From a virus: a stretch of DNA of 37,935 bases. Below, one piece after another: positions 7,927 through 37,935 of this stretch. The position numbers were made by a program, and so were the translations under genes. Every line of letters starts with the position of its first letter. The stretch's first letter is position 1. The notes beneath the pieces were generated by a model. The model did no database searches, had not been told where the DNA came from, and was given only the letters and a program-made list of their open reading frames with translations. The stretch lies in the IMG/VR virus record IMGVR_UViG_3300029258_003251, one strand, 5' to 3'.

Positions 7927-9156
7927 TCAGCCTTTGTTTCCATTTATTAATTTAGCCTCTTTCCCTGTGAATGTTTCCCATCTTTCAATTATGATATTGC
8001 AGTAAGCGGGATCTATTTCCATGCCAAGACAAGTGCGGTTTGTTTTCTCACAGGCTATGAGGGTAGAGCCAGAGCCTAGAAAGCCATCCCAGATAAGCAT
8101 TCCTTTTTTACTAGAATGAATAATGGCATGCTCAATAACTGAAATGGGTTTTGAGGTGGGATGGCTTTTATGTGGCGTTTTTGTAAAAACCCAATAACCG
8201 TATGCGTGCCCCTCATCTGGATACTTAAAATAATAATTTGGGGTATGCCCATAGCATATCATTTCAAGACTAGAAAAATTCCATGTCTTCTTTGTTAAGC
8301 TTGGCATAGGGTTTTGTTTACACCAAATTAAATAGCTATAAAAAGAGCAATAAGAGCCCATCCATTCCCATATTTTTGGTGCAACGAATTGTGATGTGAA
8401 AATATAATAAGAGCACCCTGACTTAGATAGAGCGGGCAAATTATTTAGCATTGGATTAATATCAAAATCCTGGTCCCATTCTGAGTTTTTCAATGTTTTA
8501 ACAGCTTTATTAACATCAGAGCCAAGACAGCTTGTTTTCCCACCGCAGTTATACGGTGGATCAGTAAACACCATATCCGCTTTCTTACCATTCATTAGCC
8601 GATCCAGATTTTCTTTTACAGTGCAGTCACCGCATAAGAGCCTATGCTCACCAAGCACCCACAGATCTCCCTCTTTACACCTAGCCTCAGCATTCCCTGG
8701 CACACTGTCCGCATCCTTATCCTCAAACTTATCAGCTATCTCCATCTCAAAATTTTCAAGGCCCAGCATATTCACATCAAAGTCAGGGCCTAAGTTTTCC
8801 ATTTCAGCATTCACAAAGCTAAGGTCAATACCTACCCCTGCCCACTCATGTAGTGAGTTGTCAGCCACAATGTCTGCATATTCCTGATCGGTATTCTCAT
8901 AGTTTTGATAATCCACAGGGGCACTAGGCCAGCCTTTTAGCTTAGCTGCCTCAAGAGCGCCATGCCCTGCGGTGATATAACCAGACTGCTTACTCACTCT
9001 TATAGGCCTACGCCACCCCTGGTATTCAATAATATCTGCCAGACGTTTTATCTGATCATCGGTATGCTTATTGGGGTTTCTGGGATGAGGCTTAAGATCC
9101 TCAATAGCTTTCATCTCGGTATGTTCACACCTAATCGGTATCTCATTGCGTGCCAT
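7927..9156 (-). CDS. ParB-like nuclease domain fused to an N6/N4 DNA methyltransferase.
   Basis: N-terminal KPHPRNPNKH...ITAGHGALEAAKL (ParB/Srx-like), then VFTDPPYN (DPPY motif) and C-terminal DGFLGSGSTLIACEKTNRTCLGMEIDPAY (SAM-binding FxGxG). Confidence 0.9.
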   Translation of the reverse strand: MARNEIPIRCEHTEMKAIEDLKPHPRNPNKHTDDQIKRLADIIEYQGWRRPIRVSKQSGYITAGHGALEAAKLKGWPSAPVDYQNYENTDQEYADIVADNSLHEWAGVGIDLSFVNAEMENLGPDFDVNMLGLENFEMEIADKFEDKDADSVPGNAEARCKEGDLWVLGEHRLLCGDCTVKENLDRLMNGKKADMVFTDPPYNCGGKTSCLGSDVNKAVKTLKNSEWDQDFDINPMLNNLPALSKSGCSYYIFTSQFVAPKIWEWMGSYCSFYSYLIWCKQNPMPSLTKKTWNFSSLEMICYGHTPNYYFKYPDEGHAYGYWVFTKTPHKSHPTSKPISVIEHAIIHSSKKGMLIWDGFLGSGSTLIACEKTNRTCLGMEIDPAYCNIIIERWETFTGKEAKLINGNKG

Positions 9157-30030: not shown

Positions 30031-30336
30031 ATGGCTAGACATAAGAAAATATTCAGAGATACCTCTGAAAAAATCGAACTATTAAGTAAATGGAAAAATC
30101 TACAAGATCAAGGGCTCAGCGCTTATGCTGCGGCTAAGAGGCTTGGAGTGCCTGCCCCCAGTCTTTTTGGCTGGGATAGGAAAGGTATTCATAAAATAAA
30201 GGGAAATAATGGCAATAGCCGAATAGTGCCCAGGAGCACTCAAAAGATACCAGCCAGCATTCTCCTCATGTTAGAGGATGATGATGTACCGCCCACTAAA
30301 AAGATCGCCCTTATGGAAACCTACTTTGGCACCTAA
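30031..30336 (+). CDS. Helix-turn-helix DNA-binding protein.
   Basis: AAAAAGGAGAAAAACAAATG start context and the HTH-like GLSAYAAAKRLGVPAPSLFGW. It converges on and overlaps the E1 gene stop by 4 nt. Confidence 0.65.
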   Translation: MARHKKIFRDTSEKIELLSKWKNLQDQGLSAYAAAKRLGVPAPSLFGWDRKGIHKIKGNNGNSRIVPRSTQKIPASILLMLEDDDVPPTKKIALMETYFGT

Positions 30337-31058
30337 GGCATGGTTTGGGGGGCATCCAAGAGGTGCCCCCTCATTTGATTGGCCCCCACATGCCACTCAA
30401 CTATCCGGTAATAATTCCTATGGCACAGCCTGTCCTTTATGATCTTACATATGAGCCCGCTTATCAGCAGCACAGTATAAATAGTGCTCCTGGCTGTACA
30501 GGGCTCCTGTATTGAATTCTCATCACTATGCAAGGTCTTCTCATACATCTCCTGGTCTTGGGGCATATCTGGCCTTATGGCAAATACCCTCAAGTATTCT
30601 GATGCCATCCTGGGATCTATGAGTAGTTCAGCCTCAGGGTTATTTTTTTGGTTTTCCCAAATCATTTTCCTCACAGCCATAGAATCTACAGCGCTTATAG
30701 TTATACCAGGCCCTAATCCCTGCCCCGCATAAAAGTCTGGGGCATAAGAAATAGATCCACCCCCCATTCTGAGCACTGTCTCATAAAGCTTGGCTACTTT
30801 TTTATGGCCCACATCTTGGCCCCCATAAAACTGGGCATTGAGATTTTCTATTTCCACATCATCCCCATCCCAAACATCTATATTAATAAATCCCATCTTG
30901 GCCAGAGATAGAGTAGTAAAGCTACCCACAGCCCCTGCCCCAATAATAGTAATGGGTGTGCAAAGTATCTGCTCAGGGATAATATCAAACTGCCTAGTCA
31001 ATTCTTCTCGCATCTCCGTGCCACTCCTTATAGTCATAATAATATTCAAGCCACTCAT
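30333..31058 (-). CDS. E1-like ThiF/MoeB-family adenylyltransferase (short form). Alternative starts are at 31037 and 31013.
   Basis: ITIIGAGAVGS (Rossmann GxGxxG), DGDDVEIENLNAQ (ThiF D-x-D...NL-x-x-Q block), AVDSMAVRKMI and a candidate catalytic Cys in EPCTARS. Confidence 0.85.
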   Translation of the reverse strand: MSGLNIIMTIRSGTEMREELTRQFDIIPEQILCTPITIIGAGAVGSFTTLSLAKMGFINIDVWDGDDVEIENLNAQFYGGQDVGHKKVAKLYETVLRMGGGSISYAPDFYAGQGLGPGITISAVDSMAVRKMIWENQKNNPEAELLIDPRMASEYLRVFAIRPDMPQDQEMYEKTLHSDENSIQEPCTARSTIYTVLLISGLICKIIKDRLCHRNYYRIVEWHVGANQMRGHLLDAPQTMP

Positions 31059-31923
31059 CTATCTCTCTATCATCCATGCCATTAATATCTGCATTTGTGA
31101 AACTTAGGGCATACAGAATATCTAAATCACAAGGATCTAATGTGCGGTGTTTAGTACGCTGGGTATTATTGCGGTTGAGGTTTTCCCATTTGTAATCTTT
31201 TTTAGCTGCCTTTTTTTGTTTTTTAAGGGCATTGAAAAACTGCTTTCTGGTATATACCACAGCCACCCCATCAAAGGAGATTCTGATCTTGTTTTCTTTA
31301 ATTTCTCCTGGAGATACATACTGAACACTATCCCCTATAGCATAGTATCCACCCTTCAAATCTGCCTGTGTTTTGATCTCATCATTTATAGGCGCTCTCC
31401 AAGATCCCCCACTATAACCTGCCCAGGTTTTGGTTTTTACATTATCATCATATTCCTTATTCCATTGCTTCTCTAACTCACTATCATAATAAAAGACTGG
31501 TCTTGTGGGGATTTCATCTACAAAAATGGCAGGTAGCCCCGTCACTTTACCCTGGTAATAGCAGGATTTGATTTCTGCTTTAGTATTAAAGACAGAAGCT
31601 ATAAACCAGCCATTACTACCAAGATCTTTAACTGTCTCTTTATCTGTAGCACTCCAAAACACAGTGCCTTGTCCGTGGCTATGCCACCAGAAATTGAGGT
31701 GCCCAGGATCATCTTTTAACTCAAACATTGCTTTAGACAGATCCTCACCATCAATATCAGTGGCACCTCTTGAGTTTTCCTGAGGCAGTAGCATGGCATT
31801 GATCACCCTAAAACCATCCTCAATAATGACTACTTTACCCAAACCACTTACCTCTTGTGGTGATGCTTTCCTCACCCAGTACATTATCTTTTGGTAAACC
31901 AGATTATCGATTGTTATCTGCAT
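30994..31923 (-). CDS. JAB/MPN (JAMM) metalloisopeptidase with a ~170-aa C-terminal extension. The start is placed at the Met with a GGAGAG RBS.
   Basis: EVSGLG (conserved Glu) and HSHGQGTVFWSATD match the JAMM motif HxHx7Sx2D exactly. Confidence 0.85.
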   Translation of the reverse strand: MQITIDNLVYQKIMYWVRKASPQEVSGLGKVVIIEDGFRVINAMLLPQENSRGATDIDGEDLSKAMFELKDDPGHLNFWWHSHGQGTVFWSATDKETVKDLGSNGWFIASVFNTKAEIKSCYYQGKVTGLPAIFVDEIPTRPVFYYDSELEKQWNKEYDDNVKTKTWAGYSGGSWRAPINDEIKTQADLKGGYYAIGDSVQYVSPGEIKENKIRISFDGVAVVYTRKQFFNALKKQKKAAKKDYKWENLNRNNTQRTKHRTLDPCDLDILYALSFTNADINGMDDREIDEWLEYYYDYKEWHGDARRID

Positions 31924-32941
31924 TAGCTTCTCTCCGGACAACATTGTTTATAAGAGTATCGACTGCTATCCTGTCAATTTCTCTGCCTACCTCTGAAATA
32001 TTAGAGCCAGCATTTTTTTTTATTCCATTTTTTTGAGAGAGCATCCTCTCGTATTTCTCCCTAAACTTATATAGCTGTATATAAGGGCCTGCAGGTTTAT
32101 AGACGGTAAGCATGATCTGAGTTAACTTTAATACGCCATAAATATCAAACTTGGCATAACAATCTAGAAGGGCTTCACGTTGATTACCATAACAGAGATA
32201 CCCATCTCTAGAGCAGAATGGATGAATTCCGCCATCTACTAAAATATTATCTTTTCCCTTTTTTATTTGTGTGTGCATATCTTGAAACCAAAGCAGCACT
32301 CTATATTGGCCCATTGGCACAGAATAGTTTATAGCTTTAGCTGGATCTTTTTCACTAAGTACTATATGAGGGGTATTTAGCTCTAGGTGATCTTCGTATA
32401 GCCTGTGTATAGAGTAAAACCCCTCATCTATTATTTTAAATATCTGCTCACCCAAACTTTGCCCGTTAACTTTACTCGACAACTCCTGGAAGCTAAGCAT
32501 TAGATTGCAGTAAAGCGAGTTAAGGTCCCTTTGATGCCTGTCAATTCTACCCCTAATATCTCTAATATAGCTGTTTGATTGCCACGTCTCACTGGCATCT
32601 AAGTCTAGCTTTTTAAATTTGGTGTGGTAATAAGTAAACACCCTATCATCTAAGCTTTTTTTAAGGCTCAGATCTTTAAATTTCCCAGCTTCTTTCTCAT
32701 GCATAAAAAGCCTATTAAATTTTTTGGGCGGGAAAGGAATAAATTTCGAGCTAAAGTAATTCAGATAAAGGAACGCCATAGAGTCCAGCATATGCCCGCT
32801 GACTACGGTAACCATGTGATTGAGATTATCTGTAGCTTCTGAGACCTTATCCTCATCTAAATTTCTCTGTATCAAAAAATAAAGATCATCTATTGAGAGC
32901 CTATTCCCATATTGGTAAATAATATCGCTTTTTAGAGACAT
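31904..32941 (-). CDS. E2-like (UBC-like) protein with a large N-terminal domain of unknown function. An alternative upstream start is at 32992.
   Basis: The C-terminal region GIHPFCSRDGYLCYGN resembles the UBC HPN...Cys active-site block. It sits between the Ubl and JAB genes. A GGGGGATTCTT RBS precedes the ATG at 32941. Confidence 0.55.
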   Translation of the reverse strand: MSLKSDIIYQYGNRLSIDDLYFLIQRNLDEDKVSEATDNLNHMVTVVSGHMLDSMAFLYLNYFSSKFIPFPPKKFNRLFMHEKEAGKFKDLSLKKSLDDRVFTYYHTKFKKLDLDASETWQSNSYIRDIRGRIDRHQRDLNSLYCNLMLSFQELSSKVNGQSLGEQIFKIIDEGFYSIHRLYEDHLELNTPHIVLSEKDPAKAINYSVPMGQYRVLLWFQDMHTQIKKGKDNILVDGGIHPFCSRDGYLCYGNQREALLDCYAKFDIYGVLKLTQIMLTVYKPAGPYIQLYKFREKYERMLSQKNGIKKNAGSNISEVGREIDRIAVDTLINNVVRREANADNNR

Positions 32942-32961
32942 AAGAATCCCCCAGATAATTA

Positions 32962-32989
32962 CCCGCCCCCCATAAAGCAGAGGGGCGGG
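32962..32989 (-). promoter_or_regulatory. Intercistronic GC hairpin between the Ubl and E2-like genes.
   Basis: CCCGCCCC (32962..32969) pairs with GGGGCGGG (32982..32989), an 8 G-C-only base pairs, around a 12-nt loop. Confidence 0.5.
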
Positions 32990-32998
32990 CATAATGGA

Positions 32999-33199
32999 TT
33001 AGGCTCCCTTAGCATTAGGGGCAAAGGATACGTAGCAGAAATCCTCTAATTCCTCATCCCCATCCGCAGGCACACCATTGATAGAGGCAGAGTAATCATC
33101 TCCTGCTTTGATCTTTTCCCTAGCATCCTCTACCGTATTGAGCCCGCTAAATACCTGAGGATTGCCCCCAGCTACTTGAACAGTTACCTTTTTAGCCAT
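32999..33199 (-). CDS. Small ubiquitin-like (beta-grasp, ThiS/MoaD/Prok-Ub-like) protein of 66 aa, ending ...NAKGA.
   Basis: First gene of the E2/JAB/E1 operon, with an AAAGGAGAAAGCAAATG start context. KVTVQV...SINGVPADGDEELEDFCYVSFAP resembles the ThiS-like ..NG....L.DGD.V.... pattern. Confidence 0.55.
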   Translation of the reverse strand: MAKKVTVQVAGGNPQVFSGLNTVEDAREKIKAGDDYSASINGVPADGDEELEDFCYVSFAPNAKGA

Positions 33200-33241
33200 T
33201 TGCTTTCTCCTTTATTCAGTTGTTTTTTCAGCTAGTACAGA

Positions 33242-33307
33242 GTGTAATACTCCTGTAAAACAAGATATTACAAGCCTTTTTTAGAGCTTGACAAAGCGTG
33301 TAATACT
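33242..33307. promoter_or_regulatory. Divergent control region with three TGTAATA sites and a TTGACA -35 box.
   Basis: GTGTAATACT occurs at 33242 and 33298 as a direct repeat, with an inverted TATTACA at 33266. TTGACA is at 33288..33293, and the third site lies in its spacer. Confidence 0.4.
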
Positions 33308-33323
33308 GCATACTTATAAGGCC

Positions 33324-33527
33324 ATGAATACAATACTTAAAAGTGTCAGAATCACTAAGCAGCAGGATGAGGCTATCAAAAAAACGGGGGTAGAATTCTC
33401 ATTTTTAGTGAGATATGCGCTTGATAGTCTTTTGGCTAAAAAATCTTTAATAAAAAGACTGGCTGTACAGAAAGGGGGCAAGAGTAATGAGCCAAAAGAT
33501 ATTCGCCATAGGAGATGTGCACGGTAG
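33324..33527 (+). CDS. Ribbon-helix-helix (CopG/Arc-like) DNA-binding protein. The start is moved to the ATG at 33324.
   Basis: SVRITKQQDEAIKKTGVEFSFLVRYALDSLL fits a beta-strand/helix/helix RHH pattern. The track ORF begins at a TTG that is itself the TTGACA box. Confidence 0.5.
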   Translation: MNTILKSVRITKQQDEAIKKTGVEFSFLVRYALDSLLAKKSLIKRLAVQKGGKSNEPKDIRHRRCAR

Positions 33528-34248
33528 GAAAGATTTATTAGATGACCTGTACTTTACTATTAACCAAAACTCAGACGACAAGTTTGTTTTCTTGGGGGAT
33601 CTTATAGACAGAGGGCCACAGTCTTGTGAAGTAATAGATACTGTAATGGGCATGATGCACAATTACTCTAATAGTGTTTTCTGTGTCTTGGGTAATCATG
33701 AAAGGCTTTGTCTTAATGCCTGCTTGAGAGCCAGCATAGAGGATGAGATCCTCTGGCAAATAAATGGCGGAGATGCCACTAAAGCGAGCTATCCTACTGC
33801 CAAGGTCTTTCAAGAGCATTTAGAATGGATGCTGCGCTTACCTCTTTACCATAAAGAGCAGGGCTTCTTTTTTTCTCATGCCCCCGTGCCAAGGGAAAGC
33901 TTTAGAGATCCACATATGAAGGGGAAAGAGTACTCAGAGCAAGAGCTAACTTGGACATATAACCGGGATGAGTTTGGTGTGGCTAAAGATTTTAAAGATG
34001 GCACAGTGGGTGTGTGTGGCCACATTCATATGCTGCACAGGGGAGTAATGGCCCCAAGGTTTTATCCGCATTATATTTATGCTGATTCTGGCTGTGGCTG
34101 TAGCTCTAATGCACCATTAGTGGCGGTTGAGGTAACTACTAGAGAGACATACTGGGCATGGCCAGAGGGAGTTGATGAAGAGACTAGAAATAGGATTGAA
34201 AAACAAACTTATATTGTGGCCAAAAGAAGCTTAGGAGAAAGTGCATGA
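33487..34248 (+). CDS. PPP-family Ser/Thr protein phosphatase (lambda-phosphatase/ApaH-like metallophosphoesterase).
   Basis: GDVHG, GDLIDRG and GNHE motifs in canonical order, plus a later GHIH. Confidence 0.9.
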   Translation: MSQKIFAIGDVHGRKDLLDDLYFTINQNSDDKFVFLGDLIDRGPQSCEVIDTVMGMMHNYSNSVFCVLGNHERLCLNACLRASIEDEILWQINGGDATKASYPTAKVFQEHLEWMLRLPLYHKEQGFFFSHAPVPRESFRDPHMKGKEYSEQELTWTYNRDEFGVAKDFKDGTVGVCGHIHMLHRGVMAPRFYPHYIYADSGCGCSSNAPLVAVEVTTRETYWAWPEGVDEETRNRIEKQTYIVAKRSLGESA

Positions 34249-34889: not shown

Positions 34890-34994
34890 ATGAGGGTCCA
34901 AATATTACTCTGTAATAAATGCGGACAGTGGGGCTATGTCGTATTTAAAAAAGGAAAAGCGATCTGTATTAAATGTCTGAAATTTATTTCATAA
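34890..34994 (+). CDS. Small zinc-ribbon ORF (34 aa), not in the ORF track.
   Basis: GAGGA lies 6 nt upstream of the ATG. It reads MRVQILLCNKCGQWGYVVFKKGKAICIKCLKFIS, with two CxxC pairs, and overlaps the next gene by 22 nt. Confidence 0.4.
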   Translation: MRVQILLCNKCGQWGYVVFKKGKAICIKCLKFIS

Positions 34995-35461
34995 GCGATC
35001 TGCACTTTGGCCACCTGAACTATAAAAGATTTGTGCCCTGGATAAAGGACATGGATCACGATGAGTACATAGAGCTAATGGTGGTAAGGTGGAATTCCGT
35101 AGTCAAAAAAAATGATGTGGTATGGGTGCTTGGAGATGTGGCCTTTAATGCTAAGGGGCTTATTACTTTTGATAGGCTCCTGGGCATTAAGCACCTGGTA
35201 AGAGGTAATCACGATAACTTAAGCACGCTCAGCTATCTGAAGTTTTTTAACAGTATCCAGGGTATTGTGAAAAAGCACAGCTACTGGCTTTCTCACTGCC
35301 CTATACATCCAGAGGAATTAAGAGGCAAGAAAAATATACACGGCCATGTACATCAGAATGAGTTAAAAGACAGAGATTATATTTATGTGGGGGCTGATAA
35401 GCTTGAGGGATATCCCATTAGCTTGAATCAGATTAGAAACCAGGAGAAAACAAATGAATAA
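34973..35461 (+). CDS. Calcineurin-like metallophosphoesterase (162 aa).
   Basis: SDLHFGH, LGDV, RGNHD and HGHVH motifs in order. Confidence 0.85.
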   Translation: MSEIYFISDLHFGHLNYKRFVPWIKDMDHDEYIELMVVRWNSVVKKNDVVWVLGDVAFNAKGLITFDRLLGIKHLVRGNHDNLSTLSYLKFFNSIQGIVKKHSYWLSHCPIHPEELRGKKNIHGHVHQNELKDRDYIYVGADKLEGYPISLNQIRNQEKTNE

Positions 35462-35708: not shown

Positions 35709-35986
35709 ATCTCTTTTATCTTAACCAGCTTTTTAATCTTGAGTATGGCGGGCTTAAAGACACAATAGCTTTCACTATTATCATCATCTGGATTGCCATT
35801 AGTACACCAGGTAAGTATGTGCAGATAGTGCTCGGCCTCAGCCCATAGAATGCCCCATATCCTGCACTTCATAGGTAAAAGATTAGAGCCCCCACATTGG
35901 CTATGATCATAAAAGTCTACCTCTACCAGCCACTTATCTTTTTTGACTGTATAGCTCGCCATTAAAGACTGCCTTTCCTTTATCAA
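35705..35986 (-). CDS. Hypothetical protein (93 aa or shorter).
   Basis: ORF downstream of the - strand phosphoesterase. The start overlaps that gene, so it is uncertain. Confidence 0.5.
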   Translation of the reverse strand: MIKERQSLMASYTVKKDKWLVEVDFYDHSQCGGSNLLPMKCRIWGILWAEAEHYLHILTWCTNGNPDDDNSESYCVFKPAILKIKKLVKIKEI

Positions 35987-36674
35987 TGTTTACTATCTGT
36001 ATTGTGTAACCCCCCCTGTAAAACCATCCAATGGCAAAGGCATGGCACCAATCAGGCACATCCTCTACATAGGGAGCGGCTTTTTTAAAATCTCCAAGCC
36101 AGCCAATGTTATAGGCTTTGAGCACTTTCCCATCCCATGTGCGGGTAGTGTAGATCTGTACTCTATGAGTATGCCCAAACAGCACATCTGCGTGATATTT
36201 CTGGATCATATTAAAGCAGACGTGTTTAGAGCAGAGCGTGCCATGAGTGACTATGAGATCACGGATCTTGTAATAGCCCCCCTGGCCATATGGTATATAG
36301 CGCCATTTAGGATCAATGCCGAGTATGTCACGGGGCTTTAGGTAATTGATAAAGGCCGGGCATTTTTCTTCTATATACTTTAAGATTCTCTGTTCATGGT
36401 TACCCTCTAGGAAAGTGACTTTCCGACATTTTGAGGCTGCTACTATAGTATGGAGTAAATCGGTACAAGGACGCACCTCTTGATCAAAAAGGGCGTAGGC
36501 TTTTTGTGGGTTTTTCCGATATCGAGATAAGGAGTACACATCAAAAAAGTCACCCAAAAATACTATTTCCTTGGCATGTACCTGGGGAATAATATTCAGC
36601 AGGCATTTGATACTAGGCCAGTGTGGCCATTGGGCATGCACATCAGGCACAAATATTACAGGATAAGTATTCAT
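35934..36674 (-). CDS. Calcineurin-like metallophosphoesterase (246 aa).
   Basis: VPDVHA, LGDFFD, EGNHEQ, THG and FGHTH motifs in order. Confidence 0.85.
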   Translation of the reverse strand: MNTYPVIFVPDVHAQWPHWPSIKCLLNIIPQVHAKEIVFLGDFFDVYSLSRYRKNPQKAYALFDQEVRPCTDLLHTIVAASKCRKVTFLEGNHEQRILKYIEEKCPAFINYLKPRDILGIDPKWRYIPYGQGGYYKIRDLIVTHGTLCSKHVCFNMIQKYHADVLFGHTHRVQIYTTRTWDGKVLKAYNIGWLGDFKKAAPYVEDVPDWCHAFAIGWFYRGGYTIQIVNIDKGKAVFNGELYSQKR

Positions 36675-37782: not shown

Positions 37783-37935
37783 ATGTATCAGATGTATGAG
37801 GTAGAATTACACAGGAATGGGGAAAAATTACTCAGTCACTATAAAACTGAGTTTGAAGCTAGATATAAGGCTGAGCCATATACCACAGACAAGGATGCCG
37901 AGATTACCAGATGGGCTGTGAAAGCCTTAAAGCCA
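37783..37935 (+). CDS. 5' part of a wrap-around hypothetical gene that continues as 1..420.
   Basis: ATG at 37783 is preceded by AAAGGAGAAAACAA. It reads MYQ then MYEVELH, in frame with position 1. Confidence 0.7.
   Translation, partial: MYQMYEVELHRNGEKLLSHYKTEFEARYKAEPYTTDKDAEITRWAVKALKP
37792..37935. repeat. Terminal direct duplication, copy 2 (identical to 1..144).
   Basis: Same comparison as copy 1. Unique genome length is 37935-144 = 37791 bp. Confidence 0.95.

Follow-up and report, generated by a model that had tools for sequence, protein, structure and literature searches.

Does a tailed phage encode a ubiquitin-like conjugation system of its own, and for what might it be used? The question is raised by four co-oriented minus-strand genes (30333-33199) encoding, in this order, a ubiquitin-like protein (Ubl), an E2-like protein, a JAB peptidase and an E1 in the virus record IMGVR_UViG_3300029258_003251, whose whole 37,935-nt stretch is hereafter called the window. 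An exact 144-bp terminal repeat at the contig ends indicates that the contig is a complete phage genome (~37.8 kb), and genes for the terminase, major head protein, tape measure and tail fibre are all found in the window, in agreement with the complete phage genome proposed in the first-pass annotation. The cassette is phage-borne and lies apart from the structural module and on the other strand, with tail/lysis genes on one side and a regulatory region on the other. All four open reading frames were recovered at the coordinates first assigned to them, and every motif quoted in that annotation occurs in the translations. The overlapping starts and stops that it described are present only at the E2/JAB and JAB/E1 junctions (20 nt each), whereas the Ubl and E2 genes are most likely separated by a 57-nt spacer with a GC-rich hairpin.

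The first gene (32999..33199, minus strand) encodes a 66-aa protein ending in ...NAKGA. Its AF2 model (pLDDT 87.8) is a single beta-grasp domain of beta-beta-alpha-beta-beta-beta topology, which Foldseek matched in the PDB to MTH1743, ISG15, ubiquitin, MoaD and Urm1 (probability 1.0, TM 0.7-0.77), while the best PDB sequence match of its profile was SAMP2 of P. furiosus (5lda_B, E 0.006), aligned through the C-terminal GG. These matches bear out the ThiS/ubiquitin-like beta-grasp pattern originally proposed, and identify the protein as a ThiS/MoaD/SAMP2-type Ubl, whose nearest counterparts are beta-grasp proteins of the sulfur-carrier type. K64 is invariant and all C-termini read K-[GA]-[GA] in a five-sequence alignment; across the cassettes, the C-termini consist of V-K-[GA]-[GA] followed by 0-13 further residues. 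Each of the 36 Ubl relatives lies inside a cassette. Neither the Ubl nor the window's E2 has a direct match in Pfam, NCBIfam, PHROG or PADLOC, and both calls rest on family profiles and structure prediction.

The E2-like gene (31904..32941, minus strand) encodes 345 aa from the ATG at 32941, in keeping with the length first given. The first ATG of the frame, at 32992 (31904-32992), gives the 362 aa chosen by gene callers and is located at the base of the hairpin; a GGGGGA Shine-Dalgarno sequence precedes ATG 32941 by 7 nt, and the latter is the likely start. The N-terminal domain (32477..32941, minus strand; residues 18-172 in the 362-aa numbering) is all-helical in the AF2 secondary structure (pLDDT 50-90) and measures ~155-170 aa rather than the ~200 aa first estimated. 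Its Asn93 (FNRLF) is nearly invariant, at least 90% of 81 sequences retaining it, and its PDB profile matches are coiled-coil-like only. This domain could serve to bind a partner or as a substrate adaptor, and may be the latter since no E3 is encoded.

It is followed by a predicted UBC-like catalytic domain (32003..32476, minus strand; residues 173-330), modelled with pLDDT >90 over residues 180-325 in an alpha-beta-sheet-loop-3-helix topology. It includes the UBC-like block GIHPFCSRDGYLCYGN, with H257-P258 (32219-32224, minus strand) upstream of the candidate catalytic Cys267 (32192-32194, minus strand); G228, H257, P258, C267 and G269 are invariant in the 81 family sequences. PF00179 (UQ_con) is matched by 7 of the 81 members, and hhalign aligned the E2 with eukaryotic E2s at a probability of 93.5%, placing HPx on HPN and C267 on Cys85 of UBE2D2, in the register expected if the originally proposed E2 assignment is correct. 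A PDB profile search returned weak matches to E2 enzymes, and the full-length Foldseek search against the PDB was not significant (best E2: Ube2W, probability 0.8, E 0.25). The Asn of HPN is absent, being replaced by Phe here and by His in most relatives. Relatives of the protein number 437 among 1.84 billion protein-cluster representatives, with no match in 50,697 GenBank phage records.

The remaining two proteins are matched more directly: Pfam searches returned Prok-JAB and ThiF above threshold. The third gene (30994..31923, minus strand; 309 aa, or 316 aa if it starts at 31944) matches Prok-JAB (PF14464; 6.2e-6, 26.5 bits, gathering cutoff 25), and its catalytic domain occupies approximately residues 1-140. 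An exact HxHx7Sx2D motif, HSHGQGTVFWSATD (31642-31683, minus strand), and the Glu24 motif EVSGLG (31837-31854, minus strand) can be read directly, so that the JAMM peptidase named in the first-pass annotation holds; the JAMM motif is kept in homologous cassettes. The C-terminal ~170 aa gave no match and form a large, variable extension.

The last gene (30333..31013, minus strand) encodes a minimal E1, a single ThiF-type adenylation domain of 226 aa (241 aa if it starts at 31058), containing ITIIGAGAVGS, DGDDVEIENLNAQ and EPCTARS. Its GxGxxG lies at 30921-30944 (minus strand), and the Cys of EPCTARS, initially listed as a candidate, is the invariant Cys172 (30498-30500, minus strand); Asp110 and Lys72 are likewise invariant in the alignment. 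R7-Q8 (a candidate Arg finger) and R135 are further features. In N57...Q61, however, Ala stands where Arg is usual; this Arg of the nucleotide-binding motif N-x-x-R-Q is missing throughout the clade, so that activity in adenylation cannot be taken for granted. CxxC zinc motifs are absent from the protein, as are a separate Cys domain and a UFD by which an E2 could be recruited. It matches Pfam ThiF (PF00899; 7.1e-15, 55.2 bits, cutoff 28.1) and phrog_15670 (5e-20), and among profile matches UBA5 (5.5e-13) is followed by PaaA, MccB and Uba1, with MoeB also matched. Its best NCBIfam matches are ThiF models, the ThiF and MoeB equivalog scores being far below their cutoffs.

The Ubl gene is preceded by a strong AAGGAG ribosome-binding site (33207-33212), read directly, and by a weak candidate for a sigma-70-like promoter (33265..33294, minus strand; TTGTCA-18-TAATAT), 65-95 nt upstream of the start, which matches 9 of 12 positions, the count of such sites in the region not being above chance. 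Directly after the Ubl stop codon lies the GC-rich hairpin (32960..32990, minus strand), with a 12-bp stem and a folding energy of -34.8 kcal/mol for 86 nt (z -2.5). The corresponding hairpin falls in the lowest 5% of windows of its own locus in 22 of 35 distinct cassettes; its position is shared among cassettes and its sequence is not conserved. It may act as a partial terminator, an attenuator or a 3' stabiliser, and its presence after the Ubl stop in most cassettes suggests that the Ubl is made in excess.

A search of phage and metagenomic sequences for the four-gene arrangement, foreseen in the first-pass annotation, recovered it, with the gene order unchanged, from at least 33 other metagenomic phage contigs. 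The full order is present in 25 of 56 metagenome loci, two are permuted and nearly all others end at contig edges; 8 further full cassettes were found in addition to these 25. The homologues are intact open reading frames with 20-58% identity and invariant catalytic residues, and all complete cassettes but one (L079) include a UBC-like E2 with the invariant Cys. The contigs are diverse, some deriving from probable jumbo phages; they include IMG/VR contigs, terminase or portal genes lie near the cassette in L013 and L037, and all BFVD matches are uncultured phage proteins. Close relatives were absent from 185,579 species-representative genomes in a scan limited to short peptide patterns. The cassette is a conserved, widespread phage module that has escaped annotation in uncultivated phages; it is not unique to this phage. 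No published description of it was found, and none of the four proteins reached the thresholds of PRTRC, CBASS or other named models in PADLOC and NCBIfam.

The resemblance noted initially to the bacterial Bil operons is exact as regards gene order, Ubl-E2-JAB-E1 being the published order of BilA-B-C-D. BilABCD, of which Type II comes nearest to the cassette, is an antiphage system conjugating its Ubl to a phage central tail fibre; in Type II BilA, conjugation is blocked by the Ala that natively follows the Gly, the residue after which BilC cleaves (Chambers et al. 2023/2024, PMC10557695; Hor et al. 2023/2024, 10.1101/2023.09.04.556158). Both systems comprise four separate genes without an E3 and with a catalytic Cys (candidate in the phage) in E1 and E2, and in both the Ubl C-terminus has a conserved Gly, which short overhangs follow in some members; V-K-[GA]-[GA] followed by 0-13 residues parallels Type II BilA with its Ala after Gly. 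Nevertheless, BilD combines an inactive and an active adenylation domain with a mobile helical Cys domain and a Zn site, whereas the phage E1 is a single 226-aa domain. BilB has a conserved His downstream of its Cys, whereas the phage E2 has H-P upstream, as in eukaryotic E2s, and adds the ~155-aa helical domain. The phage Ubl is a single 66-aa domain, in contrast to the tandem Ubl of Type I BilA, and there is no model-level sequence match between the two sets of proteins. Bil is bacterial defence cargo, whereas the phage module resides in phage genomes. The cassette, with Bil's parts in Bil's order, would work like Bil, yet is a distinct family.

Archaeal sampylation (SAMP1-3, UbaA and JAMM peptidases) shares with the cassette a small ThiS/MoaD-type beta-grasp modifier, a small E1 of MoeB/ThiF size and a JAMM peptidase, which in archaea processes and removes the modifier; it has no E2, unlike the phage module, and the NCBIfam model for the SAMP-activating E1 scored the phage E1 at 20.7 bits (cutoff 450). 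Eukaryotic E2s (PF00179) have, like the phage protein, H-P-x 8-10 residues before the catalytic Cys (candidate in the phage) and a P-x-x-P-[YL]-type motif after helix 2. UBE2W, which is among the weak profile matches and is the best E2 in the non-significant Foldseek search, has HPHV...G.IC, resembling the family consensus HPHV...G..C. The phage E2 differs in its replaced HPN Asn, additional beta-strands and large helical N-terminal domain. PRTRC cassettes of plasmids and ICEs (TIGR03734-03742) also combine a ThiF-family protein with a JAB-like PRTRC_A and small partners, but PRTRC_ThiF (5.6e-5, 22.6 bits, cutoff 144.75) and PRTRC_A (0.052, 13.1 bits, cutoff 101.8) gave weak local matches, other PRTRC components gave none, and no ParB partner lies beside the cassette. 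The sole ParB-like domain in the window lies 22 kb away, in a fusion with a methyltransferase. The likeness to Bil and PRTRC lies in the architecture and not in family membership.

Taken together, we think it probable that the four genes form a self-contained Ubl conjugation cascade used during infection. The Ubl would accumulate in excess, the hairpin limiting read-through into the enzyme genes, and the JAMM peptidase would trim residues beyond V-K-[GA]-[GA] in the relatives that carry them, perhaps also Ala66 of this phage's Ubl. The E1, which probably forms a homodimer as ThiF, MoeB and UBA5 do, would adenylate the Ubl C-terminus and capture it as a thioester on Cys172; the Ubl would then pass to Cys267 of the E2 and be conjugated to amino groups of target proteins, a reaction that the peptidase might also reverse. 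We favour the view that the cassette modifies host or phage proteins in the service of the infection programme, be it takeover, counter-defence or the control of phage development, over a role as defence-island cargo, because the module is kept across very diverse phages, among early/accessory genes. Viruses, and not just bacterial defence systems, appear to use Ubl conjugation chemistry.

The same biochemistry might instead serve defence or superinfection exclusion, Bil-like tagging of competitors' structural proteins, such as tail fibres, spoiling their assembly. We regard this as rather improbable, even though the parts and order match BilABCD, whose target is a phage central tail fibre, and the cassette, between tail/lysis and regulatory genes, occupies the kind of accessory region that often holds defence cargo. 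No PADLOC or NCBIfam defence model was matched except by the generic nucleotide-binding part of the E1; the module co-diverges in dozens of unrelated phage contigs rather than occurring sporadically, and the pattern-limited scan found no close relatives in bacterial species-representative genomes. Lysogeny, the usual setting of phage-borne defence, is not evident either, as no integrase was found among the window ORFs scanned. Hosts are known to use Ubl conjugation against phages, and a peptidase of this class encoded by a phage would make an obvious antagonist: the JAB might remove Ubl or CD-NTase conjugates made by the host (Bil, CBASS type II), its large variable extension recognising foreign substrates, or the Ubl, E1 and E2 might act as saturating decoys. 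This is unlikely, since an eraser needs no Ubl, E1 or E2 of its own, yet the four co-occur almost without exception; the JAB shows no sequence affinity to Cap3 or BilC, and no matching host system can be named.

A sulfur carrier is another conceivable role, the Ubl being adenylated by the ThiF-like enzyme and turned into a thiocarboxylate that supplies sulfur for a cofactor, a tRNA base or nucleic-acid modification, with the JAB merely exposing the carrier's C-terminus as in the CysO/Mec+ and QbsE/QbsD systems (Iyer et al. 2006). SAMP2, MTH1743 and MoaD are among the best Ubl matches, the E1 is of ThiF/MoeB size with ThiF models as its top NCBIfam matches, and crAss and FpV4 homologues bear a thiamine-biosynthesis label in GenBank. 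Such a role is likewise unlikely: an E2 with an invariant Cys, useless to sulfur-carrier pathways, is obligate except in L079; the window yielded neither a rhodanese nor a cysteine desulfurase, a thiazole or molybdopterin synthase, or a thiouridylase; the equivalog scores are all far under cutoff; and the excess-Ubl signal suits a consumed tag better than a recycled carrier. That four unrelated or decayed frames with look-alike motifs lie together by chance has next to no probability, the missing direct database matches of E2 and Ubl notwithstanding, and is refuted by the conservation of the same families in the same order with invariant catalytic residues.

Similar genes occur in other phages. 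CrAss-like phages (Kehishuvirus, PhiCrAssBcn) and Flavobacterium phages of the FpV4 group have a ThiF and JAB pair in the shared gene order, with the JAB immediately upstream; their E1s belong to the same clade (29-32% identity over ~80-87% of the length) and share the invariant Cys, the lost NxxRQ Arg and membership of phrog_15670. Upstream of the JAB, these loci carry a ~420-aa protein that the E2 profile does not match, and a Ubl was not detected in the vicinity. GenBank labels the pair 'thiamine biosynthesis protein' and 'metalloprotease'. In the tail-assembly pair of lambda and T1, TAPI is a Ubl and TAPK combines JAB with NlpC/P60 (Iyer et al. 2006, PMC1779556). As in the present cassette, a phage-encoded Ubl with a C-terminal Gly adjoins a JAB peptidase; that pair, however, sits within the tail gene cluster without E1 or E2, whereas the cassette lies outside the structural module and includes both enzymes.

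The four genes lie on the minus strand of the window, between positions 30333 and 33199, and each could be read as an intact ORF: the ubiquitin-like protein (Ubl; 66 aa, 32999-33199), the E2-like protein (31904-32992; 362 aa from its first ATG, which is the numbering used here), the JAB peptidase (30994-31944; 316 aa at its longest, with a start at 31923, giving 309 aa, favoured by gene callers and by the homologues) and the E1 (30333-31058; 241 aa at its longest, with a favoured start at 31013 that yields 226 aa and begins MREELTRQ as in its relatives). The first-pass annotation, made from the sequence alone, had placed four minus-strand ORFs at these positions, and all the motifs it quoted were found in their translations. 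Its description of the genes as packed with overlapping starts and stops holds for the E2/JAB and JAB/E1 junctions (20 nt each), but not for the Ubl/E2 junction, where there is no overlap. It had also assigned the E2-like protein a length of 345 aa, which is indeed the product of a second ATG at 32941, preceded by a GGGGGA Shine-Dalgarno sequence. We regard the observation of the cassette as confirmed, and the interpretation then given to it as supported.

The cassette is conserved as a unit. Local HMMs of the four families recovered Ubl, E2, JAB and E1 in this order and on one strand in 8 further contigs, while a metagenome scan with the E1 yielded 56 loci, 25 of which display the full order, some of them with a second E2 paralogue; two of the 56 are permuted, one is without a detectable E2, and nearly all others end at contig edges. 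The permuted order, E1-Ubl-JAB-E2, was found at loci L045 (2394-5287) and L042 (906-2612). The settings include terminase and portal genes and contigs classified as viral in IMG/VR, and contigs of 169-314 kb whose neighbouring genes match phage protein families carry the cassette as well. At the nucleotide level, blastn of the cassette against GenBank phages returned nothing. A scan of 185,579 species-representative genomes for the E1, based on short peptide patterns, retrieved generic ThiF N-terminal matches of ~45 aa from unrelated bacteria and, having given generic matches only, offers no clue to the host and constitutes weak evidence for the absence of the cassette from bacterial genomes. 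No earlier account of a Ubl-E2-JAB-E1 cassette in a phage turned up in the literature, the nearest precedents being the tail-assembly pair TAPI/TAPK of phages lambda and T1 (Iyer et al. 2006, PMC1779556) and the E1-like genes of an Asgard archaeal virus. In one related locus (L035), an HNH endonuclease gene (PF13392; 3018-3491) and two small ORFs are located between E2 and JAB; this insertion looks like a homing endonuclease.

The window, which corresponds to the JGI metagenome contig Ga0310068_1001734, possesses an exact 144-bp direct terminal repeat (1-144 and 37792-37935) and therefore represents a complete genome of ~37.8 kb, either assembled as a circle or terminally redundant. Its gene products include a large terminase (~30% identical to the terminases of ~42-kb siphoviruses of Gammaproteobacteria), a major head protein, a tape measure protein, a tail fibre, RecT and a ParB-like N-terminal domain fused to a DNA methyltransferase (7927-9156, minus strand; phrog_498, 2e-89). 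No integrase is evident in this phage, and a promoter scan gave a site count not above chance. The same phage was assembled from several further samples, with an identical E2 protein. The cassette occupies an early or accessory part of the genome, where three calcineurin-like metallophosphoesterases are encoded within 3.5 kb of it: a NinI/lambda-PPase-like Ser/Thr phosphatase (33487-34248, plus strand; phrog_246, 3.5e-43), a second enzyme at 34973-35461 (plus strand) and a third at 35934-36674 (minus strand). A VRR-NUC nuclease is also found near the cassette. Since the NinI-like phosphatase gene is divergent from that of the Ubl, a second protein-modification enzyme directly adjoins the conjugation module.

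Direct family scans with Pfam, NCBIfam, PADLOC and PHROGs returned nothing for the Ubl or the E2-like protein, and word-indexed homologue searches with either retrieved only the query proteins themselves. Homologues of the Ubl were instead taken from the gene upstream of the E2 relatives. The AF2 model built from a five-sequence alignment (pLDDT 87.8, pTM 0.73) has a beta-beta-alpha-beta-beta-beta topology followed by a floppy, low-pLDDT tail, and Foldseek matched it in the PDB to MTH1743, ISG15, ubiquitin, Caldiarchaeum ubiquitin, MoaD and Urm1 with a probability of 1.0 and TM of 0.7-0.77; the beta-grasp fold proposed for the 66-aa protein is thus borne out. The top PDB match of the Ubl profile was SAMP2 of P. 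furiosus (E 0.006), aligned up to the C-terminal GG, and a distant Ubl relative (L037) has a weak precomputed match to Pfam ThiS, while hhalign comparisons of the profile with single sequences were uninformative (MoaD 42%, ThiS 2.7%, Ub 0.6%). The C-termini of 36 Ubl relatives read V-K-[GA]-[GA] followed by 0-13 residues, mostly VKGG plus a tail; L016, for instance, has KGNAAL and L074 has KGG plus 13 residues. The window Ubl ends in KGA, aligned with KGG, and thus shares with ubiquitin-like modifiers a C-terminal Gly, exposed or exposable, on a flexible tail. According to published work on the Bil systems, Ala98 of Type II BilA must be removed; going by the alignment, Ala66 of the phage Ubl may likewise be removed or may itself be the activated residue.

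Directly 3' of the Ubl stop codon is a 12-bp GC-rich stem-loop (32960-32990, minus strand), at whose base lies the ATG that opens the long E2 ORF; this argues for translation of E2 from the ATG at 32941. Six other cassettes inspected show a hairpin of unrelated sequence but equal strength in this position, in two cases together with a U-tract; besides the window, the hairpin loci comprise the related contigs L012, L013, L017, L033, L035 and L037 and 28 metagenome loci. When the 63 nt following the Ubl stop were compared with same-length windows of their own locus in 35 distinct cassettes, permuted ones included, they reached the most stable 5% in 22 (median percentile 0.026). Both permuted cassettes, L045 and L042, keep the hairpin after the Ubl gene (-34.8 and -33.9 kcal/mol, respectively). 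What is conserved is the position of the hairpin, not its sequence. The hairpin probably acts as a partial terminator or 3' stabiliser, which would render the Ubl more abundant than the enzymes; such an excess would fit a tag that is consumed.

The E1 clearly exceeds the threshold of the Pfam ThiF family (PF00899; 7.1e-15, 55.2 bits against a cutoff of 28.1), in agreement with the ThiF/E1 call made from its motifs. In the PDB, the profile of its clade matched UBA5 best (5.5e-13), as well as PaaA, MccB, Uba1, ThiF, MoeB, Cap2 and, more distantly, BubCD (2.4e-6). The protein consists of a single adenylation domain of 226 aa and contains no CxxC motifs. The GxGxxG motif (IGAGAVGS), D49/D51, K72 and D110 are invariant in five members of the clade, the homologues from crAss and FpV4 among them; R135 and the N-terminal R7-Q8, a candidate Arg finger, are also kept. 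Cys172 (EPCTARS) is invariant in all clade members examined and may be the counterpart of ThiF Cys184 or MoeB Cys187, the PDB alignments ending before this region. The Arg of the ATP-contacting N-x-x-R-Q motif is absent from the window E1, which reads NLNAQ (ENLNAQ at 30831-30848), and in our alignment of the clade (A4) the same position, which aligns with the Arg of UBA5 NMNR, reads NAQ, SCQ, GGQ or SGQ. Judged from this alignment, none of the phage E1s of the clade retains the Arg, although the other catalytic residues are kept; for an active adenylating E1 this is unusual.

This clade corresponds to phrog_15670 and extends to crAss-like Bacteroides phages and to the FpV4 group of Flavobacterium phages. 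In these viruses the E1 directly follows a JAB and a ~420-aa uncharacterised protein in the replication region (L009, Flavobacterium phage FpV4, 59962-68495; L010, the crAss-like Kehishuvirus 'tikkala', 67588-76214). The ~420-aa neighbour did not match the E2 profile, and neither an E2 nor a Ubl could be detected in the surroundings. The E1 is annotated there as 'thiamine biosynthesis protein' and the JAB as 'metalloprotease', both probably mis-annotations, and we suggest a re-annotation of the genes that carry the name 'thiamine biosynthesis protein' in crAss-like and in Flavobacterium phages.

The E2-like protein of the window has no Pfam match at E<=1, and no hit was obtained among 50,697 GenBank phage records by tblastn with three members of its family. 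An exhaustive HMMER search retrieved 437 relatives (39 below 1e-10), always matched over residues ~170-320. In an alignment of 81 sequences, G228, H257, P258, C267 and G269 are invariant within the consensus yHPHVsssGevCWGN...LTtYNp.nPY, and 7 of the 81 match PF00179 (UQ_con) on their own (best 6.1e-6). The family profile produced weak PDB matches to eukaryotic E2 chains across the active-site region, and a comparison by hhalign between the C-terminal domain and six eukaryotic E2s gave a probability of 93.5% and an E of 2.4e-7, in a register that places HPx on HPN (H75-P76 of UBE2D2), Cys267 on Cys85 and PxxPY on PNPDDPL. In the numbering of the 345-aa form, Cys267 is C250. The Asn of HPN is replaced by Phe in the window protein and by His in most relatives; HPH also occurs in UBE2W. 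In the AF2 model, residues 180-325 (pLDDT >90) form a helix, a sheet, an active-site loop and three helices, plus extra strands, while the N-terminal ~170 residues are helical and of lower confidence. Foldseek of the full-length model gave no significant match in the PDB (Ube2W ranked highest among the E2s, with probability 0.8 and E 0.25), a comparison in which the helical N-terminal domain, being long, probably outweighs the rest of the protein; against BFVD it returned only uncharacterised proteins of uncultured phages. Within this otherwise variable helical domain, N93 is nearly invariant (FNRLF, residues 92-96, 32705-32719; family consensus INKxFF) and is a candidate functional site.

In some cassettes a second, shorter E2-family paralogue precedes the main E2 or follows the E1 (L043 6670-7485; L049 7064-7909; L040 2759-3502; L060 2880-3737; L077 2700-3560; L089 2526-3515). 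It might be a UEV-like cofactor or an extra conjugating enzyme.

The JAB scores just over the gathering threshold of Pfam Prok-JAB (PF14464; 26.5 bits, cutoff 25). Its motif HSHGQGTVFWSATD conforms exactly to HxHx7Sx2D and Glu24 lies upstream in EVSGLG, both as claimed for the third gene and both legible in the translation. The JAMM motif is intact in the JABs of other cassettes. No match was obtained for the C-terminal ~170 residues, and a sequence search of the PDB with the JAB gave spurious matches only.

In gene content and order (Ubl-E2-DUB(JAB)-E1) the cassette is identical to the bacterial BilABCD antiphage systems (PMC10557695; 10.1101/2023.09.04.556158), a likeness on which the first-pass annotation had drawn. 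Published BilD combines an inactive and an active adenylation domain with a mobile helical Cys domain, whereas the phage E1 is one adenylation domain of 226 aa; in BilB the catalytic Cys is followed by a conserved His (CEHH-type in Type II), whereas in the phage E2 H257-P258 lie upstream of the Cys and no invariant His occurs downstream of Cys267 in the 81 sequences; and Type I BilA is a tandem Ubl, unlike the phage protein. The sequence models gave no match either: PADLOC (version 2.0.0, taken to include ISG15-like/Bil models) matched neither Ubl, E2 nor JAB, and no Bil chains were present among the PDB profile matches of the Ubl or E2, nor among the 60 of 69 E1 matches listed. Membership in the PRTRC systems could be rejected on the scores for TIGR03735 (PRTRC_A; 13.1 against 101.8 bits) and TIGR03736 (PRTRC_ThiF; 22.6 against 144.75); no other PRTRC model of NCBIfam matched and no ParB adjoins the cassette, while the ParB-methyltransferase fusion, located 22 kb away, does not make it a ParB-related PRTRC system. 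A CBASS Cap2-type fusion was likewise rejected, E1 and E2 being separate genes. The PADLOC matches to CBASS E1-E2 are confined to residues ~10-95 of the E1, its nucleotide-binding part, and no nucleotidyltransferase was found among the cassette neighbours scanned. According to Ye et al. (2024, PMC11601596), Bub systems employ oxyester (Ser) intermediates, an E1 without a catalytic Cys and a Ser-His peptidase rather than a JAB; Bub-type chemistry was rejected for the phage cassette, in which Cys is invariant in both E1 and E2 and the peptidase is of the JAMM type. A tail-assembly role like that of TAPI/TAPK was also rejected. The cassette is a new family-level variant of the Ubl-E2-JAB-E1 kind, notable for its residence in phages, its minimal E1 and its eukaryote-like E2 motif.

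The best-supported mechanism is a thioester relay. The JAB would mature the Ubl where needed; the Ubl would then be adenylated, form a thioester on Cys172 of the E1, be handed on to Cys267 of the E2 and be conjugated to targets, with the helical domain of the E2 as a possible adaptor and the JAB as the eraser. A role of the Ubl as a sulfur carrier is unlikely, since only one complete cassette is without an E2 and there are no sulfur-transfer enzymes near the cassette. As for the benefit to the virus, our preferred reading is that the cassette serves the infection of the phage that carries it, because the module has been conserved in phages of great diversity, was not detected in bacterial genomes by the scan with short peptide patterns and resides, in the window, in a phage with no evident integrase. 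For the same three reasons we place this reading above carriage as defence cargo, which we consider less likely, as we do a counter-defence role. Tentatively, and as a possibility to which we give somewhat less than even weight, tailed phages ranging in size from siphoviruses of ~38 kb up to probable jumbo phages may own a minimal ubiquitination lineage, in which a SAMP-like Ubl with a KGG end is combined with a JAMM peptidase, a single-domain E1 and an E2 that has a eukaryote-like H-P...Cys arrangement and a helical adaptor of its own, and may use it offensively to tag host or phage proteins and control infection. Ubl conjugation would then be two-way in the phage-bacterium conflict, and the E2s could form a branch near the root of the canonical UBC enzymes that has gone unrecognised.

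To our knowledge, experimental work on Ubl conjugation in prokaryotes has so far dealt either with antiphage immunity (CBASS Cap2/Cap3, Bil and probably Bub) or with archaeal sampylation. Eukaryotic viruses use protein tagging, and a phage-conserved, essentially unannotated Ubl-E2-JAB-E1 module would show that bacterial viruses do so too. Its four small genes form a compact system for asking what a virus gains by tagging proteins in a bacterial cell, and raise the questions of how the E2 would choose its targets without an E3 and how it would be charged by a 226-aa E1 that has neither the canonical Arg for ATP contact nor a Cys domain or UFD. Since the Lys preceding the terminal [GA][GA] is invariant, a diGly-like remnant is expected after trypsin digestion, which should allow targets to be identified directly from mass spectra.

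A minor observation concerns one of the related loci, L012 (a Logan contig from SRR17165180), where the database gene calls at 320-568 and 579-1559 read through stop codons: P0152 has a Q where translation table 11 has a stop, after ...KAGA, and the call P0004 does not translate to the query protein. Either the phage in question may recode stop codons, or the calls were made under the wrong genetic code.
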